DNA from: an archaeon
Lineage (GTDB): Archaea > Iainarchaeota > Iainarchaeia > Iainarchaeales > CSSED10-239
DNA: 7,083 nucleotides
Reading direction: 5' to 3'
Assembly: GCA_037147375.1 (NCBI GenBank)
Contig: JBAWVI010000050.1
Coordinates: forward strand, 1 to 7,083
Below the pieces are notes generated by a model. It ran no database searches and had not been told where the DNA came from. It saw only the letters and a program-made list of their open reading frames with translations. Position 1 is the stretch's first letter. Each line of letters begins with the position of its first letter. The position numbers and the translations under genes are program-made. Below, in pieces: positions 1 to 6,925 of the stretch.

Positions 1-549
1 ACACATGGTCGTAAAGTATCATTTAAGAACTGTGTAATTTTGTTAACATCTAATGTTGGAACAAGAGTTGTGAAAGAGTTCAGTACTGGTGTTGGTTTTA
101 ATACTTTAGCCAAGAGTGATAATCACGATGCTGATATTAAATCTACTTTAGAGAAAGAGTTAAAAAAGAAATTCGCACCTGAATTTATTAATAGATTGGA
201 TGATATTATCTATTTCCGTGATTTAGGCAAAGAAGACATCAAGAAAATCGTAACTATTGAATTGAGCAAATCTGTTAAAAGATTACAAGGTATTGGTTAT
301 GAGTCTAGCATAACAGACTCTTTGATTGAACATCTGATTGAAGTTGGATATGATCCACAATTCGGAGCAAGACCTATGAAGAGAGCTATACAGAGATGTA
401 TAGATGATCCATTAACAGATAAATTATTAGATGAACCAAAGGTTGGATCTACACTGCTAATATCTTATGATAAAGATGAAGATAAAACAAAAATCGACAT
501 TAAAAAAATCACAAAAGAGAAGATTTCTAAGGAAGTTAAGAAAGTATAG
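1..549 (+). CDS. Clp/Hsp100-family AAA+ ATPase (ClpC/ClpA/ClpB type), C-terminal part only; the 5' end lies upstream of the window
   Basis: Frame 1 is open from base 1 (THGRKVSFKNCVILLTSNVG...), so the TTG at 40 in the ORF track is internal. Second-AAA-module and D2-small-domain hallmarks are present: 'LLTSNVG', 'FAPEFINRLDDIIYF' and 'GYDPQFGARPMKRAIQ'. Stop TAG is at 547-549. The C-terminus alone cannot separate ClpC, ClpA and ClpB. Confidence 0.85.
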   Translation, partial: THGRKVSFKNCVILLTSNVGTRVVKEFSTGVGFNTLAKSDNHDADIKSTLEKELKKKFAPEFINRLDDIIYFRDLGKEDIKKIVTIELSKSVKRLQGIGYESSITDSLIEHLIEVGYDPQFGARPMKRAIQRCIDDPLTDKLLDEPKVGSTLLISYDKDEDKTKIDIKKITKEKISKEVKKV

Positions 550-668: not shown

Positions 669-1880
669 ATGTTAGAAATATTTATGGTGATTATTAGAAT
701 GGGAAACGGGGATACAAAAAATATATTTGATTATTTAACTCTTGAGGAGTTTAGTGAGGTAAAGGAATTTGCAAAAGATAAAAAAACTCCATTTCTTATT
801 GTTGATCTTAAAAAAATAGGAACTAAATTTGATGAACTTGCTCGTTTAATGCCTTTTGCAAAAATATATTATGCAGTTAAAGCAAACTCTATGCCAGAAG
901 TTCTAAAATTACTTGCTGAAAAAGGTTCAAACTTTGATGTTGCAACTATTTTTGAACTTGAAGAAGTACTTAAGCTTGGTGTTACTCCTGATAGAATTTC
1001 TTTTGGAAACACAATCAAGAAAGAAGAAGATGTTAAGTACGCATTCGATAAAGGAGTTAGATTATTTGTTTCTGATTCAATAACTGATTTAAAAAAAATA
1101 TCTAATAGTGCTCCAGGTTCAAATGTATTTTTTAGAATAATTAATGAAGGTGGTGAATCTGATTGGCCTCTTTCAAGAAAGTTTGGAGCACATCCAGACA
1201 TGGTTTATCATTTAATTATTGAAGCAAAGAATCTAGGATTAGTTCCTTATGGAATATCCTTCCACGTTGGTTCTCAGCAAAGAGATGTTGGACAATGGGA
1301 TAATGCAGTTTCACAATGTAGATACTTATTTGATTCAGCTAAATATGATGGAATTGATCTTAAAGCAATAAACATAGGTGGAGGATTTCCTGCTCACTAT
1401 CTAAAATCAGCACCATCAATTGATACTTACACAAAAGAAATTACGAGAATATTAAAAGATGATTTTGGAGATAATTTTCCAGCAATCATAGTTGAGCCAG
1501 GAAGATCCATAGTAGGAGATGCTGGTGTTCTTGTTACTGAAGTTATTATGATTTCTAAAAAATCAATTATTAATCAATATGAATGGGTTTACATTGATTG
1601 TGGAATATATAATGGATTATTTGATACTATTAATGAATCAATTAAGTATCCAATCTTTTCTGAAAGAATTCTTTCTTCAAAGGACAATAAAGAAATAATT
1701 CTTGCAGGTCCAACTTGTGATTCTCTTGATGTTTTATATGAAGATTTTAAGTATTCTCTTCCTGTTGAGTTAAGAGAAGGGGATAGATTATATGTTTTAA
1801 CAGCTGGAGCATATGTTCCAACCTTAAGTTCAATTGGGTTTAATGGTTTTCCTCCATTAAAGATATACACTATAAAGTAA
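669..1880 (+). CDS. PLP-dependent ornithine (or lysine/ornithine) decarboxylase, alanine-racemase-fold, eukaryotic ODC-like
   Basis: 403-aa ORF carrying the family motifs. These are 'YYAVKAN' (PLP lysine K71, nt 879-881), 'ISFHVGSQ', 'NIGGGFP', 'EPGRSIVGDAG' and 'GPTCDSLD' (ODC-type active-site Cys, unlike the LysA CESGD pattern). The start is uncertain: in-frame ATGs occur at 669, 684 and 699, none with a clear SD. Confidence 0.85.
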   Translation: MLEIFMVIIRMGNGDTKNIFDYLTLEEFSEVKEFAKDKKTPFLIVDLKKIGTKFDELARLMPFAKIYYAVKANSMPEVLKLLAEKGSNFDVATIFELEEVLKLGVTPDRISFGNTIKKEEDVKYAFDKGVRLFVSDSITDLKKISNSAPGSNVFFRIINEGGESDWPLSRKFGAHPDMVYHLIIEAKNLGLVPYGISFHVGSQQRDVGQWDNAVSQCRYLFDSAKYDGIDLKAINIGGGFPAHYLKSAPSIDTYTKEITRILKDDFGDNFPAIIVEPGRSIVGDAGVLVTEVIMISKKSIINQYEWVYIDCGIYNGLFDTINESIKYPIFSERILSSKDNKEIILAGPTCDSLDVLYEDFKYSLPVELREGDRLYVLTAGAYVPTLSSIGFNGFPPLKIYTIK

Positions 1881-1895
1881 AATTAATAAGATATT

Positions 1896-2657
1896 ATGAG
1901 TGAAATAATAATTATTTGGTTATATTCAATAATTAGTGTTATCTTTATATCTCTAGTTTCCCTTATTGGAATAGTTACTTTATTTATAAAAGAAAAGAAC
2001 ATGAGTAATCTCTTGCTTTTCTTTGTTTCTTTTTCTGCTGGTGCATTAATTGGAGATTCATTTATTCATATACTCCCTGAAGTTGTTGAAGAATTTGGTT
2101 TTACTTTATACGTTTCTTTATATTTTATCTTAGGATTATTAATATTCTTTGTGCTTGAGAAGTTCATTCATTGGAGACATTGTCATGTTCCAACCTCAAA
2201 AACACATCCTCATCCATTTGTTTATATGAACCTTTTTGGAGATGCTCTTCATAATTTAATTGATGGGCTTGTTATTGGTGGAACCTATTTAGTTTCTATT
2301 CCACTTGGTATAGCAACCACCTTAGCAGTACTTTTTCATGAGATTCCACAAGAGCTTGGAGACTTTGGGGTTTTATTGTCTGGTGGATTTACAAGAAAGA
2401 AAGCATTACTTATGAATTTTTTAACAGCACTTACTGCAATTGTAGGAGTAATAATTGCATTACTTCTTGGACAGATCTCAGAAGGTTTCATGTTATTTGT
2501 TCTTCCGTTCACAGCTGGAGGATTTATTTACATTGCAACAGCTGATCTAATTCCTGAACTTAAGAAAGAAACAGGTGGAAAGAAATCTATCTTACAATTA
2601 ATTGGAATAGTTTGTGGAGTAGGAGTAATGTTATTACTTCTTCTTGTATTTGCTTAA
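1896..2657 (+). CDS. ZIP-family divalent metal (Zn2+/Fe2+) transporter
   Basis: 253-aa polytopic membrane protein. It has a His-rich loop 'HWRHCHVPTSKTHPHP', the TM4 motif 'GDALHNLIDGLVIGG' and the TM5 motif 'HEIPQELGDFGVLL' (an HExPHExGD-like ZIP signature). It starts 15 nt after the decarboxylase stop, so the two are probably co-transcribed. Confidence 0.85.
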   Translation: MSEIIIIWLYSIISVIFISLVSLIGIVTLFIKEKNMSNLLLFFVSFSAGALIGDSFIHILPEVVEEFGFTLYVSLYFILGLLIFFVLEKFIHWRHCHVPTSKTHPHPFVYMNLFGDALHNLIDGLVIGGTYLVSIPLGIATTLAVLFHEIPQELGDFGVLLSGGFTRKKALLMNFLTALTAIVGVIIALLLGQISEGFMLFVLPFTAGGFIYIATADLIPELKKETGGKKSILQLIGIVCGVGVMLLLLLVFA

Positions 2658-2667
2658 ATAAATTAGG

Positions 2668-2700
2668 AAAAAAAATGAAAAGTTAAAAAGAAAACTTTTC
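2668..2700 (-). terminator. Probable intrinsic terminator of the minus-strand HD/NOX transcript
   Basis: On the minus strand an 8-bp stem (complement of 2693-2700 pairing with complement of 2677-2684) has an 8-nt loop, then one A and a U8 run (complement of A8 at 2668-2675). The hairpin overlaps the last NOX codons. The stem is AT-rich and therefore weak. Confidence 0.45.
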
Positions 2701-3996
2701 ATGATGTATTCTCTTCTTTGAAACACCCATTCTTTTTAATAACTTAATTATATGATTAGTCATTCCTGGGGGCCCACATACAAAGAAATCAGTGGTGGTT
2801 GGATTTAATATAACATTTCTAAGTTTATCCTCATTAAGATGCCCAAATTTATTAGATGAATGATAATAATGATTATGATTCTTTTCCTTAAGAGAATTAA
2901 GTTCTTCTCTAAAAACAATATCCTTATCATCCTTAACTGAGTAGATTAAAGTAATTTCTCTTGAAGGATCAAGTGTTAGTTCTTCAATTAATGATCTAAT
3001 AGGAGTTATTCCTATTCCACCAGCAATTAATACTACATTTTTATGCTTAATTCTATCCTTGTGGAAAGTTCCAAGTGGTCCTTCAATAATTATTGGGGTT
3101 CCTCTTTTAATTTCATGAACCTTAGATGTAAAGTCTCCTAGATTTTTAATAGATATTCTAAGTTCAATCTCTGAATGAGCTCTTGAAAAGGAAAAAGGAT
3201 GTGCCTCATAGAATGTTTTATCAAGAAATCTAAATATTCCAAATTGTCCTGCTTTAAACTTGAATCTATTTAACTTATTTCCTCTAATATAAATAGAAAC
3301 AATATCTTGATTTTCTTTAACAACTCTACTAACTACAAATCTATGTACATAATAGTTGTAGATAGGAACTAAGAAACGATAAACAACGAGTAAACCAATA
3401 ATAATTATATATAAAACATACCAATAAACTAAGAATGCATTATTTGAATAAAGATCCATTCCATTTTCAATCTGGTGTGAGAATGCTAAGATGATTACAA
3501 GATATGTAAATAAATGAGTTAAATACCATAACTCATACTTCATTTTAATCTTTGATAAAGTTATTGATAATATTATTATAATTATTAAGATTACAAATGC
3601 AAAAATTGCTGCTCCAATCTCGTCTCCACCAATAAACTTAAGTAATTGGCTTAAGAAAGAAATATTTGAGATTAATTTGTAACCTATAGTTAAGAAAAGA
3701 CCATGTAAGAACAATAAACCAAATGCAACAATTCCATTATAATGATGTATTCTTGAAAGCTTATCATGTCCGTATGTGTTTTCAATAAACTTTATCTTAG
3801 AAATTAATAATATTTGAATTAGGAATAAATAGGTTCCAATTAAACCAGTAATTCTTCCAAGAGCATTATACAAAGAGTCTCCAGTTAACATTGATTGATT
3901 ATTAAAATACCAAAAACCAAGGATGATTAAGATATTAAGTATAAACAAAGAGGTTAAGGTTATCTTTTTAGTAAGAGTTTTATTTATTTCATCCAT
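2683..3996 (-). CDS. NOX/FRE-family flavocytochrome: ferric-reductase transmembrane domain fused to an FAD/NAD(P)H-binding dehydrogenase domain
   Basis: 437 aa with a hydrophobic N-terminal half. Two bis-His pairs have NOX-like spacing: H84/H98 (14 apart) and H161/H174 (13 apart). Also present are the FAD motif 'HPFSFS' (266-271), the NAD(P)H motif 'GGIGITP' (326-332), 'CGPPGM' (407-412) and a C-terminal aromatic '...EKFSF'. Confidence 0.85.
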   Translation of the reverse strand: MDEINKTLTKKITLTSLFILNILIILGFWYFNNQSMLTGDSLYNALGRITGLIGTYLFLIQILLISKIKFIENTYGHDKLSRIHHYNGIVAFGLLFLHGLFLTIGYKLISNISFLSQLLKFIGGDEIGAAIFAFVILIIIIILSITLSKIKMKYELWYLTHLFTYLVIILAFSHQIENGMDLYSNNAFLVYWYVLYIIIIGLLVVYRFLVPIYNYYVHRFVVSRVVKENQDIVSIYIRGNKLNRFKFKAGQFGIFRFLDKTFYEAHPFSFSRAHSEIELRISIKNLGDFTSKVHEIKRGTPIIIEGPLGTFHKDRIKHKNVVLIAGGIGITPIRSLIEELTLDPSREITLIYSVKDDKDIVFREELNSLKEKNHNHYYHSSNKFGHLNEDKLRNVILNPTTTDFFVCGPPGMTNHIIKLLKRMGVSKKRIHHEKFSF

Positions 3997-4012
3997 AGTT
4001 AATCAAATTATT

Positions 4013-4582
4013 TTAAACTTTATTTAGATAATCATGTATTTTACTCATAATTGCTATATGCTCTGGTTGCATTGGTCTATTAATCTTAGTTAACAAACCT
4101 AATGTTTGTTCTTTATAGTATTTTTTAAATTGCTTCTCTGTAACTTCAAGATCAGAAACGTTATCAAGTCTATCATCTAGCTTGATTAAGAGTGCTTCAT
4201 TTGTCATATTATTTAGTTTATTCTTTAGATATTCTGTTTTTCCAATTATTTGAACTATTGTTTTATCAGAGGTTAGTTCATAAACTAAGTAAACAACAGC
4301 TTTTCCAAAATATTCCTCTATTTGCTCATAACTTATATACTTATCTTCAACAGCATCATGAAGCCAAGCAGCAATAAGTATATCTTTGTTTTTAGTATAT
4401 TTAGATATAATTTTTACAACTGCTTTAGGATGATTGAATTCAGGCTTAGTTGGATGAAATTTCATATATCTTTTTTGCATCATTATCTTAATAAACCTCT
4501 CAGCTAAGGAGTTTTTTGAATATTTTTTTGAAAGTTTTATAAGTAGTTCTTTTGAATTAATTTCGGTTGTGGTTGCAGTCAT
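4013..4582 (-). CDS. HD-domain hydrolase of the RelA/SpoT hydrolase (Mesh1 / small alarmone hydrolase-like) family
   Basis: 189-aa single-domain protein with 'HPKAVV...AAWLHDAVED' (H...HD...ED metal site), 'YELTSDK' and 'IKLDDRLDNVSDL' (compare KLADRLxN in SpoT/Mesh1 hydrolase domains). There is no synthetase domain. It lies 16 nt upstream of the NOX gene on the same strand. Confidence 0.75.
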   Translation of the reverse strand: MTATTTEINSKELLIKLSKKYSKNSLAERFIKIMMQKRYMKFHPTKPEFNHPKAVVKIISKYTKNKDILIAAWLHDAVEDKYISYEQIEEYFGKAVVYLVYELTSDKTIVQIIGKTEYLKNKLNNMTNEALLIKLDDRLDNVSDLEVTEKQFKKYYKEQTLGLLTKINRPMQPEHIAIMSKIHDYLNKV

Positions 4583-4747
4583 AAATTATCATCTCTTTAA
4601 ATATAAATAATCACCCAAACTAAATAAAAACTCCTCTTTTTTAGGAAAAGATAGGTATTTAAATCATTTTTAGCATATATATATTATCTAAGTAACATTA
4701 ATTAATGATTAATAGCAGTTTTTTATTATTAGGGGGTTTGAGAATTT
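4583..4747. promoter_or_regulatory. Divergent intergenic control region between the HD/NOX pair (-) and the repeat-protein gene (+)
   Basis: A 165-bp non-coding AT-rich spacer between two divergently oriented start codons. On the minus strand, TTTATATT (complement of 4600-4607) sits 18-25 nt upstream of the HD ATG. SD AGGGGGT (4731-4737) lies 10 nt upstream of ATG 4748. A perfect 12-nt palindrome cattaattaatg is at 4696-4707. The exact promoters are not resolved. Confidence 0.4.
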
Positions 4748-6775
4748 ATGGTTTCAAAGAAAAATAAAGTAAACTTATCAAAATCACAATTAAAAAATAT
4801 TAAGACTAATATTAAAAAAAATAAAATAAGTATAGATAAAATTAAAACAAATATTAAAGATGATAAAGCTAATATTAAAGATGATAAAACACATATTAAA
4901 GAAGATAAAGCAAACATAAAGAAAGATAAGGTTCATATAAAGAAAGATAAAACTAACATAAAGAAAGATAAAATAAACATAAAGAAAGATAAAGCTAGCA
5001 TAAAAAAAGCTAAAGCAAGTATTAAGAAAGATAAAGCAAGCATAAAAAAAGCTAAGGCGAATATAAAAAAAGTAAAACCAATTTTAACAAAAGCACATAT
5101 TATTAAAGAACTTAAAAGACAAGCATCTAAACCTATTTTTAGAAGTAGATATATAATTAAACCAATTACAGTTAAACATATTATTGATGCAAAGCTTAGT
5201 TTAAAGCAAGCATTAACTATTCTTAAGAAAGGAAAAGTTAAAAATAAAGTTTTAAGTAAGATGAAATTTACTATTAAACAATTATTAAATAATGGATATT
5301 CTCCAAGAGACTTAAGAACAGCAGGATATACTGCAAGAGGGCTTAAGAACGCAGGAGTTTCTGTAAGATCTTTAAAGAATGTAGGATATACATTAAAAGA
5401 ATTATTATCTTGTAATAGTATTAAAGTAGTTATATCTTTAGGATATAAATTAAAAGAATTAAAAAGATTAGGATATACAATCAGTAAGCTAAAGAGAGCA
5501 GGCTTAAAGTTAAAAGATTTTAAAAAAATATTTACAATAAGAGAATTAAAAAATGCAGGATATACTTTAAGAGAATTATATAATGCAGGATTTACTATTT
5601 CTCAATTAAGAAAGGGTGGATTTACATTTAAACAATTCCTTGCAAGCAAGTTTACAATTAAACAATTATTTGATTCTGGATTTAGTTTACAAACATTCTA
5701 TGCAAATGGGTATACAATACATAACATAATTAATTCTGGAGTTTCAGTTAAAGATCTTCTTGCATCAGATATTAAAGTATCTGATTTCTATAAAGCAGGA
5801 GTTAAAGCAATTATCTTATACAAAGCAGGAGTTACTTTAAAGGAATTAAGAGAAGGAGGATATGACATCAAAGATTTAATTGATGTTGAATCTTTTTCAA
5901 AAGATAAAGTTACTACAAGAGAATTAAAATATCTTGGTTATTCAGTTCAAGATATATTATCTTTAGGTTATACAATAAATAATTTTAGAGAAGATGGATT
6001 TACAAGTAAAGAATTATCTGATGAAGGAATAACTTGTATTCAATTAAGAGATGGTGGATATAGTCTTTTAGATTTATATAAAGCAGGATGTACAATTTCA
6101 AGCTTATTTGGAATGGGTTATGGGCTTGAAGATTTCAGAGTTGCAGGCTTTTCTGCACTTAATCTTCATTTAGAAGGATATTCTCTTCATGAGCTTAGAA
6201 GAGCAGGTTTTTCTCCAAAAGATTTGATTACAGTTGGATATTCAGCAAAGCAATTTCATTCAGTTGGTTATACTGGAAAGGAATTATATGAAGCTGGTTT
6301 TTCACTTGCAACTCTTTATTTTGCAGGATATGCTGCAAAAGAGTTTAATGGACTTGGAATTCCTGTTAAAGAATTTTATGAAGCAGGGTATTCTGGAAAG
6401 GAAATGTCTCAAGCAGGTTATACACCTGTTGATTTAAGAAATAATTATTCAGTTAGAGAACTTAGAAGAGTTGGATTTTGGTCTTCTTCAATGAGAAAAG
6501 CAAATTATTCAGCAAGTGAGTTATATGATGCTGGTTACACTGTAAGAGAATTACATAACGCAGGTTATCCAGCTCTTGATGTATTTAATCTAGGAGTTGG
6601 AATAAGATTATTAAGAGTAGTTCATTATACAGCAAAAGAGATTAGACCACTTGGGTTTTCAGCAAGAGATTTAAAGAGGGTAGGATATTCTCTTCAAAAT
6701 TTAAAAGAAGCAGGATATAATGAATCAGAGCTTCTTGAAGCTGGATATTCACTTGAAAAAATAAAGGAAATATAA
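4748..6775 (+). CDS. Large repeat protein: Lys-rich heptad array, a degenerate linker, then about 50 decapeptide (double pentapeptide-like) repeats; function unknown
   Basis: A 675-codon uninterrupted ORF in roughly 70% AT DNA, where random frames close quickly. It has a good SD (AGGGGGT) 10 nt upstream of the ATG. Strong amino-acid-level periodicity is kept even where the DNA repeats have diverged, implying selection on the protein. No N-terminal signal peptide or TM segment is evident. Confidence 0.8.
   Translation: MVSKKNKVNLSKSQLKNIKTNIKKNKISIDKIKTNIKDDKANIKDDKTHIKEDKANIKKDKVHIKKDKTNIKKDKINIKKDKASIKKAKASIKKDKASIKKAKANIKKVKPILTKAHIIKELKRQASKPIFRSRYIIKPITVKHIIDAKLSLKQALTILKKGKVKNKVLSKMKFTIKQLLNNGYSPRDLRTAGYTARGLKNAGVSVRSLKNVGYTLKELLSCNSIKVVISLGYKLKELKRLGYTISKLKRAGLKLKDFKKIFTIRELKNAGYTLRELYNAGFTISQLRKGGFTFKQFLASKFTIKQLFDSGFSLQTFYANGYTIHNIINSGVSVKDLLASDIKVSDFYKAGVKAIILYKAGVTLKELREGGYDIKDLIDVESFSKDKVTTRELKYLGYSVQDILSLGYTINNFREDGFTSKELSDEGITCIQLRDGGYSLLDLYKAGCTISSLFGMGYGLEDFRVAGFSALNLHLEGYSLHELRRAGFSPKDLITVGYSAKQFHSVGYTGKELYEAGFSLATLYFAGYAAKEFNGLGIPVKEFYEAGYSGKEMSQAGYTPVDLRNNYSVRELRRVGFWSSSMRKANYSASELYDAGYTVRELHNAGYPALDVFNLGVGIRLLRVVHYTAKEIRPLGFSARDLKRVGYSLQNLKEAGYNESELLEAGYSLEKIKEI
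4811..5083 (+). repeat. 13 tandem 21-bp repeats encoding heptads I-K-K-D-K-x-N/S
   Basis: aa 22-112 read IKKNKIS IDKIKTN IKDDKAN IKDDKTH IKEDKAN IKKDKVH IKKDKTN IKKDKIN IKKDKAS IKKAKAS IKKDKAS IKKAKAN IKKVKPI. The central DNA units are near-identical, for example aagaaagataaaactaacata and aagaaagataaaataaacata. Confidence 0.9.
5267..6772 (+). repeat. About 50 tandem 30-bp (10-aa) coding repeats, consensus [YF]-[ST]-x-x-[ED]-L-x-x-A-G
   Basis: Hand parsing from F174 gives FTIKQLLNNG YSPRDLRTAG YTARGLKNAG VSVRSLKNVG ... YSLQNLKEAG YNESELLEAG YSLEKIKEI. Four units have 9 aa, and there is one 7-aa insertion (SFSKDKV). DNA copies are diverged, but the protein register is maintained to the C-terminus. 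Confidence 0.9.
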
Positions 6776-6818: not shown

Positions 6819-6846
6819 AAACCTTTTTATCTATAATACATATAAT
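6819..6846 (+). promoter_or_regulatory. Candidate promoter P2: AAACCT-N16-TATAAT
   Basis: AAACCT 6819-6824, a 16-nt spacer, then TATAAT 6841-6846. A second TATAAT lies at 6832-6837. It has the same architecture as 599-627 and 6898-6925. Confidence 0.35.
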
Positions 6847-6897: not shown

Positions 6898-6925
6898 AAA
6901 CCTTTTTATTCACAATATATATAAT
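6898..6925 (+). promoter_or_regulatory. Candidate promoter P3 for the downstream His-rich ORF: AAACCT-N16-TATAAT
   Basis: AAACCT 6898-6903, a 16-nt spacer, then TATAAT 6920-6925, about 63 nt upstream of ATG 6989. Confidence 0.4.

Follow-up and report, generated by a model that had tools for sequence, protein, structure and literature searches.

We examined a 7,083-nt stretch of DNA (the window; GC content 27.5%) in which a gene for a stand-alone RelA/SpoT-type HD hydrolase (HD) lies immediately ahead of a gene for a NOX-like flavocytochrome (NOX). Our reading, held with moderate confidence, is that the HD-NOX pairing is specific to one lineage, inherited as part of a larger block and most likely expressed as one transcript, and that it is no obligate functional module. 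The most likely arrangement is bicistronic, in a compact DPANN genome, and joins a remodelled orphan small alarmone hydrolase (SAH) to a dispensable electron exporter of the SpNOX type. The window contains the following features, with the pair and its non-coding elements first and the neighbouring genes after them (ORF, open reading frame).

4013-4582, minus strand: HD_4 protein gene (HD), 189 aa (ORF list, Pfam)
4439-4465, minus strand: substrate-contact loop of HD, codons M40 to E48 (hmmalign, clade versus outsiders)
3997-4012, minus strand: HD-NOX spacer, 16 nt, coding strand AATAATTTGATTAACT (sequence, RNA fold)
2683-3996, minus strand: NOX-like flavocytochrome (NOX), 437 aa (Ferric_reduct, FAD_binding_8, NAD_binding_1 and NAD_binding_6 domains)
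2668-2702, minus strand: terminator-like hairpin (2675-2702) with U8 (2668-2675), after NOX (RNA fold)
4646-4665, minus strand: TATA-like block TTTAAATACCTATCTTTT, preceded by purine-rich GAAAAT (alignment of five lineages)
4680-4699, minus strand: 20-nt non-coding block AATGTTACTTAGATAATATA in the intergenic region between HD and the repeat protein (identical in 6/6 loci checked)
1896-2657, plus strand: ZIP metal transporter, convergent to NOX (Pfam Zip, 1e-52)
669-1880, plus strand: ornithine/diaminopimelate-type decarboxylase (ORF list, domain search)
4748-6775, plus strand: decapeptide-repeat protein, 675 aa, divergent from HD (Pfam PF25296)
40-549, plus strand: ClpB-type C-terminal fragment (ORF list, domain search)

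The anatomy of the pair is as the original prediction had described it. ORF coordinates agree that the stand-alone 189-aa HD gene ends 16 nt ahead of the NOX start on the same strand, and the sequence motifs named for HD are found at H75-D76 and E79-D80 (HD...ED) and at K134-LDDRLDN141 (KLDDRLDN). Both domain calls are upheld, one protein being a RelA/SpoT-type HD hydrolase with a MESH1-like fold and the other a NOX-type flavocytochrome resembling SpNOX.

HD is followed by NOX in the clade loci whose HD is 70-100% identical to that of the window, namely the window itself, L001, L099 and L102, with spacers of 16, 15, 7 and 26 nt, respectively. The whole clade block is syntenic (repeat protein, HD, NOX, ZIP, decarboxylase), so the adjacency of HD and NOX does not speak specifically for coupling. 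By pairwise identity, HD, NOX and ZIP each lead to one common grouping of the clade members. In further cases, an HD and a NOX gene come from contigs that agree in length. In L004-L007, where HD is 82% identical to that of the window, HD is followed after 62 nt by the convergent ZIP gene and NOX is absent. Since HD, ZIP and decarboxylase identities put L004 and the window in one group that excludes the NOX-bearing L001 and L099, a single deletion of NOX is the parsimonious reading. Short spacing is common here: of 37 neighbouring gene pairs with the same orientation in these genomes, 9 lie at most 30 nt apart, including decarboxylase-ZIP at 15 nt.

Outside the clade the two genes are found apart. 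The NOX relatives with 54% and 50% identity are flanked by different genes, and their loci (P0025 and P0026) contain no HD; HD relatives at 36-48% identity lie in phage-like or unrelated contexts, and the P0013 and P0009 loci contain no NOX. We retrieved 80 metagenomic NOX-like loci, 50 of them with at least 600 nt upstream, and an HD ORF is present in 0/79 non-clade loci, the clade member L102 being the only one of the 80 that has one. A NOX-like ORF is likewise present in 0/160 HD-anchored loci (80 genomic and 80 viral), the genomic ones coming from a scan of a genome collection with the degenerate pattern AWLHD..ED and being mostly proteobacterial (SpoT-region), with no clade member.

Judged from these comparisons, the pairing is vertically inherited in at least four sequence-checked lineages. 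On this comparison the adjacency arose once, in the clade ancestor, and has since been inherited with the whole syntenic block; NOX was later deleted in one nested lineage that left HD intact and constrained, and the pair is not an obligate module. The co-occurrence and synteny check proposed with the original prediction thus went against a functional pairing: the pair is confined to one narrow clade, NOX is lost in the nested L004-L007 and the pair is not seen at the other 79 and 160 loci, and comparative genomics lends no support to HD and NOX as a conserved functional module.

We interrogated the DNA around the pair for signals of transcription. The 16-nt spacer of the window contains no hairpin, no oligo-T run and no clear Shine-Dalgarno (SD) sequence, and RNA folded across the HD-NOX junction is no more structured than expected by chance (z -0.1). 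Neither the sequence nor the length of the spacer is conserved among lineages, and an oligo-T run or hairpin is found in none of four; weak SD-like elements (AAGGA / GGGGA) precede NOX in two of them, L001 and L102. After NOX, folding reveals a 10-bp hairpin that runs into U8 (dG -9 kcal/mol, z -4.2), contains the NOX stop codon and sits between the convergent NOX and ZIP genes. The claim that a hairpin with a U8 tract follows only NOX therefore stands for the window, since folding finds none at the junction. The hairpin is not conserved in L001 and L099, which have T-rich tails only. A scan for GC-rich terminators was set aside because it misses this AT-rich hairpin, which RNA folding confirmed.

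Two conserved non-coding blocks lie upstream of HD, a TATA-like block TTTAAATACC with a purine-rich 5' flank and an invariant 20-mer. The TATA-like block is located 64-83 nt upstream of the HD start codon and differs by 0-3 mismatches across lineages, a dS of ~1 notwithstanding. Both blocks are identical or nearly so in six loci (including L001 7855-7908, L004 7887-7940, L099 9865-9918 and L102 2753-2807). The TATA-like block, with TTTAAATA and its purine-rich 5' flank, is a candidate archaeal B recognition element (BRE)/TATA promoter of HD and, by extension, of HD-NOX, and the 20-mer AATGTTACTTAGATAATATA may be where a regulator binds or may be the divergent gene's promoter. We infer that HD has a conserved promoter or regulatory region from which transcription reads through into NOX: HD and NOX would most likely be transcribed together from the promoter-like block ~65-100 nt upstream of HD, and the T-rich or hairpin region that follows NOX would terminate the transcript.

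Other promoter signals were sought as well. A sigma-70 scan returned 40 sites against 44 expected, which is chance level in DNA of 27.5% GC, and the archaeal host makes sigma-70 the wrong promoter model. A candidate promoter motif, AAACCTTTWWAT, is not significant within the window alone (3 matches against 1.5 expected). The motif AAACCTTT(A/T)(A/T)AT, found repeatedly in intergenic stretches upstream of ORFs (599-610, 6819-6830 and 6898-6909, plus strand), may represent a local promoter consensus, although its 3 matches, against 1.5 expected, are not significant for the window alone.

Judged from spacing, co-transcription of HD and NOX is plausible and, in our estimate, fairly likely. The apparent co-transcription put forward originally is upheld as far as the same strand, the short spacers in four lineages and the lack of a terminator between the genes are concerned, and it is qualified by the AT-rich 3' end of HD, which may hold an internal archaeal promoter. 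This latter possibility leads to a different explanation, rather unlikely in our view, in which the two genes are independent: NOX would have its own archaeal promoter (TTTAAATA-like, ~25-30 nt before the NOX ATG) within the 3' end of HD, its mRNA would be leaderless or carry a short leader, and adjacency would reflect genome compaction only. Leaderless genes are frequent in archaea, no convincing SD sequence precedes NOX in the window, and TATA-like octamers are suitably placed in the window, L001, L099 and L004; moreover, NOX could be deleted without harm to HD. However, the same Leu-Asn-Lys codons are kept in L004, which has no NOX, so coding in AT-rich DNA accounts for the TATA-like motif. 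L102 lacks the motif, TTTAWATA occurs in line with chance (6 matches against 6.6 expected), and the weak SD-like elements ahead of NOX in L001 and L102 fit internal initiation on a polycistronic RNA.

HD itself is a well-defined member of its family. Its Pfam matches are HD_4 (5e-11) and HD, with no synthetase, TGS or ACT domain, and its match to TIGR00691 is limited to the hydrolase segment (model positions 19-144). The family profile matches human MESH1 (3nr1) at 2.8e-28 as well as Rel/SpoT hydrolase domains, and the AlphaFold2 (AF2) model (pLDDT 91) finds MESH1, RelH and PaSAH as best Foldseek matches (TM-score 0.69-0.79, probability 1.00). The metal-binding and catalytic residues H51, H75-D76, E79-D80, D137 and N141 (H35, H61-D62, E65-D66, D122 and N126 in MESH1) are invariant in the clade and present in 152-157 of 157 relatives. 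Values of dN/dS are 0.09-0.24 overall, with dS near saturation (~1), and 0.088 between the window and L004, pointing to purifying selection on HD that extends across the NOX-minus lineage. Partly from what is shown and partly by inference, we take HD to be a catalytically competent Mn-type phosphohydrolase. Within the clade, the window HD reads KLDDRLDN where all relatives read KLADRLDN, a strain-specific A136D change beside the metal ligand D137. The window protein has no exact entry in the gene index; a contig of the same species, L008, encodes a copy that is 99.5% identical.

Like the known MESH1-type and small alarmone hydrolases (Mesh1, Mesh1-L, divSpo, RelH, PaSAH and XccSAH), HD consists of a single HD_4 domain of ~180-190 aa with identical metal-binding and catalytic residues (H, HD, ED, D, N) and a common all-helical fold (the TM-scores given above). 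Its orphan arrangement, with no adjacent synthetase, is also that of Mesh1, XccSAH and a few archaeal small alarmone hydrolases. Unlike these enzymes generally, it has Met and Glu in place of R24 and Y32 of MESH1, forms an isolated cluster and is found in a DPANN host. The small stand-alone HD_4 hydrolase is a feature that it also has in common with toxSAS-SAH modules and phage SAH-type HD_4 proteins; unlike toxSAS-SAH modules, it adjoins no synthetase or toxin gene and occupies a stable syntenic chromosomal site with housekeeping neighbours. PADLOC gives no defence-model match, and a toxin-antitoxin or defence reading of HD was dropped for that reason.

The HD clade forms one isolated cluster at 50% identity in a search of 1.84 billion representatives, with the next relative at E ~4e-31. 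Its nearest relatives outside the clade (36-48% identity) are found in phage-like contexts with a match to PHROG 990. HD_4 relatives are also encoded on viral contigs (L182-L261); with up to 41% identity they are as near as any cellular relative outside the clade, and viral and cellular origins of the HD clade are therefore both possible. Some of the nearest non-clade HD_4 relatives (P0277, P0278, P0283, P0286 and P0294) are proteins of 370-400 aa with two HD_4 stretches.

What sets the clade apart is its substrate site. Using hmmalign, we compared the 8 clade HD members with their 157 nearest outsiders from the same search. At position 40 (MESH1 R24), 8/8 clade members have Met, against Arg in 152/157 outsiders; at position 48 (MESH1 Y32), 8/8 have Glu, against Tyr in 147/157 outsiders. 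The structure of MESH1 with NADPH assigns purine stacking to R24 and binding of the scissile 2'-phosphate to Y32 (10.1101/325266). The conserved nucleotide contacts of RelA/SpoT homologue (RSH) enzymes, the base-stacking Arg and the phosphate-binding Tyr, are thus present in none of the 8 clade HD proteins. The aromatic platform formed by W138/R142 in MESH1 has counterparts in F152/Y156 of HD; F152, Y156 and T160 are family-wide residues and not specific to the clade, and a reading of the substrate from MESH1 contacts is only partly informative. These alignments suggest that the nucleotide-recognition residues have been remodelled while the catalytic machinery has been kept, with altered specificity as a consequence, and that the HD substrate is probably recognised otherwise than canonical (p)ppGpp or NADPH are by MESH1 and Rel. 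The exchange of both residues in all clade HDs weakens, as originally stated, the ppGpp and the NADPH hypotheses alike.

The first of these hypotheses holds that HD is a true (p)ppGpp/(p)ppApp hydrolase and that, by being co-expressed with NOX, it links stringent-type signalling with redox or metal uptake. The catalytic core of HD is identical to that of RSH hydrolases, RelA/SpoT-family genes are reported from several DPANN phyla, in 19-69% of their genomes (PMC8407392), and small alarmone hydrolases are sporadic in archaea (PMC3153485). However, 8/8 clade members have lost the conserved Arg and Tyr that contact the substrate, no alarmone synthetase domain is found within the window or in the ~16-kb flanks of its relatives, (p)ppGpp was undetected in the archaea tested (PMC8646023), and the HD-NOX linkage is lineage-specific. 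We consider this explanation very improbable.

The second hypothesis proposes that HD removes phosphate from NADPH/NADP+, or from a related adenine dinucleotide, and in this way determines the reductant pool for a co-expressed NOX. The absence of detectable (p)ppGpp from tested archaea makes a non-alarmone substrate attractive, and there is precedent: MESH1 is an NADPH phosphatase (10.1101/325266; PMC9166373), and NADPH is also hydrolysed by the bacterial orphan XccSAH, which controls the level of NADH in vivo (PMC9765508). The presence of the aromatic platform and the tight packing and co-inheritance of HD and NOX also fit. Against this hypothesis, the adenine-stacking R24 and the 2'-phosphate-binding Y32 are Met and Glu throughout the clade; SpNOX takes NADH and NADPH about equally (PMC11564096), and the window NOX has His386, not Arg, at the corresponding specificity position; HD is kept under selection where NOX is absent; and no such pair was found at any of the 79 NOX-anchored or 160 HD-anchored loci. 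Tuning of NADPH by HD is, in our judgement, quite improbable.

A further possibility, decidedly improbable in our estimate, is that HD is a neofunctionalised RSH hydrolase that exchanged Arg and Tyr for Met and Glu on coupling to NOX, acts on another cofactor and forms with NOX a lineage-specific electron-export module. Candidate substrates would be, for example, NADP(H), FAD or a 2'/3'-phosphonucleotide of the coenzyme A (CoA) or 3'-phosphoadenosine-5'-phosphosulfate (PAPS) type; MESH1 also dephosphorylates CoA (PMC13221220). The pair may then condition a cofactor and export electrons across the membrane in genome-reduced DPANN archaea.

Several points weigh against the reading that HD and NOX are co-transcribed and inherited together with no obligate functional link. 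It draws on four or five lineages and one loss event only, which gives it no statistical power. The pair persists over ~30% protein divergence with near-saturated dS, and the change in the HD substrate site and the linkage to NOX map to one clade; both are compatible with a lineage-specific functional link. In addition, the TATA-like A/T octamers in the 3' codons of HD, ~25-30 nt before the NOX start, speak for separate transcription, at a frequency that is that of chance in this AT-rich DNA.

The NOX protein is a flavocytochrome of the SpNOX type. Pfam identifies Ferric_reduct (5e-14), FAD_binding_8, NAD_binding_1 and NAD_binding_6, and the best PDB sequence match is SpNOX (8qt6, 4e-22). The AF2 model (pLDDT 86) has six long helices ahead of residue 218, and Foldseek ranks full-length SpNOX first (TM-score 0.74/0.80), with the SpNOX entries 8qt6, 8qq7 and 8qta at 0.71-0.80 over 427-436 columns and NOX2 and DUOX1 lower. 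Prokaryotic NOX proteins are defined by a six-helix domain with two bis-His motifs (H-x12-14-H) on transmembrane (TM) helices TM3 and TM5 (Hajjar et al. 2017, PMC5676040); the window NOX has H84-x13-H98 and H161-x12-H174, both invariant in 20 homologues. It also carries GIGITP, HPFSF, CGP407-409 and a C-terminal EKFSF. The fifth residue of the FAD motif HPFSF is Phe, outside the published H[PSA]F[TS][LIMV], which is a conservative deviation; 49/120 family members have the same variant. The position that specifies the 2'-phosphate, His386 rather than Arg, is not conserved. The lack of preference of SpNOX between NADH and NADPH has been attributed to the absence of an Arg at the 2'-phosphate site (PMC11564096).

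The window NOX (437 aa) and SpNOX (400 aa) are therefore alike in size, in the fusion of six TM helices to a dehydrogenase, in the bis-His pairs on TM3 and TM5, in GIGITP, CGP and the C-terminal aromatic residue, and in having no Arg at the 2'-phosphate site. They differ in that their identity is 22-23%, the window FAD motif is HPFSF and not HPFS[LIMV], and the host is archaeal. In our mechanism, electrons would pass from NAD(P)H to FAD, through two haems and across the membrane to an external acceptor. Beyond the clade, the nearest NOX relatives belong to DPANN (54%) and Patescibacteria (~44%); the survey of Hajjar et al. 2017 held one archaeal prokaryotic-NOX sequence only (PMC5676040).

Four public contigs encode the NOX-like protein of the window in identical form. 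The flanks around the identical protein differ among strains and lineages (window 669-1895; L001 10947-13441; L004 9411-11899; L011 2669-4676): in strain L011 a diadenylate cyclase comes after a decarboxylase of 394 aa, and at this place the window has ClpB after a decarboxylase of 403 aa. At the nearest NOX outgroup locus (P0025; 54%, archaeal), a gene for a 166-aa cytochrome-b5-domain protein lies 20 nt downstream of NOX on three independent contigs (L012 2625-4423, L013 and L014). This protein could be a protein electron acceptor; the SpNOX structure paper suggests that a protein partner exists (PMC11564096).

We also considered whether the real partner of NOX is the convergent ZIP transporter, with HD a bystander, such that NOX would reduce external ferric or cupric ions and ZIP would import divalent ions. 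NOX and ZIP are immediate convergent neighbours with one terminator region in all NOX-bearing lineages, NOX belongs to the ferric-reductase-domain superfamily, and SpNOX has weak ferric reductase activity (PMC11564096). The window also resembles the reductive metal uptake of plants and yeast (FRO/FRE with ZIP/IRT1 or Ftr1; for example, FRO2 and IRT1) in that a ferric-reductase-domain flavocytochrome adjoins a ZIP-family transporter. Unlike in those systems, however, NOX and ZIP are convergent and not co-transcribed, ZIP is retained in place where NOX is lost, and the association is not seen at other prokaryotic NOX-like loci, a ZIP gene being within 3.5 kb in 0/79 of them. SpNOX's activity as a ferric reductase was judged not physiologically relevant (PMC11564096), and ZIP instead appears coupled to the upstream decarboxylase gene across a 15-nt spacer. 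A metal-uptake pairing of NOX with ZIP is unlikely in our view.

The host is, on sequence evidence, a small-genome, AT-rich DPANN archaeon. The same-species contig L008 also encodes a class-II lysyl-tRNA synthetase (LysRS), all of whose named relatives are archaeal ('archaeon', 67-70% identity), with those at ~50-55% coming from Diapherotrites, Micrarchaeota, Woesearchaeota and Nanoarchaeia. At P0025, the nearest NOX outgroup locus, there are a gene for diphthamide synthesis and a 72-nt tRNA-Tyr with a short variable arm of the archaeal/eukaryotic type; this tRNA is the only hit of the tRNA and Rfam scans of the relatives, which found none in the clade loci. One relative lies on a 977-kb contig (P0006/P0023).

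Among the other genes of the window, the 675-aa repeat protein is divergent from HD and syntenic in every relative. It starts with a Lys-rich 21-nt tandem repeat of 12.9 copies (4808-5076), followed by ~40 decapeptide repeats; it matches Pfam PF25296 at 2e-121 and a DotG/IcmE-like NCBIfam model, and is unusual in an archaeon. The start of the decarboxylase is ambiguous (ATG at 669, 684 or 699, with GGTGAT 7 nt ahead of 699), and the relatives have two decarboxylase paralogues in tandem. A hairpin with a perfect 17-bp stem (AAAAAGGAGGATAAAT...ATTTATCCTCCTTTTT; -19.9 kcal/mol, z -5.6) lies at 551-587, 3' of the ClpB-type gene, and with A-runs and T-runs flanking it on both strands it looks like a bidirectional terminator.

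The novelty of this locus is a variant hydrolase and an archaeal NOX lineage, not a new system. SpNOX-type flavocytochromes exist, vertically kept, in DPANN archaea. The new point concerning the hydrolases is a remodelled substrate site in a constrained small-alarmone-hydrolase lineage with intact catalysis residues, and this Met/Glu-type HD lineage is a clean target for finding a new RSH-hydrolase substrate, with the NOX-minus relative as a ready-made natural comparison for function. If HD and NOX were functionally coupled, the pair would be the first genomic hint of a MESH1-type hydrolase feeding or gating a NOX-type enzyme; the same coupling question stands in animals, where MESH1 controls NADPH and ferroptosis.

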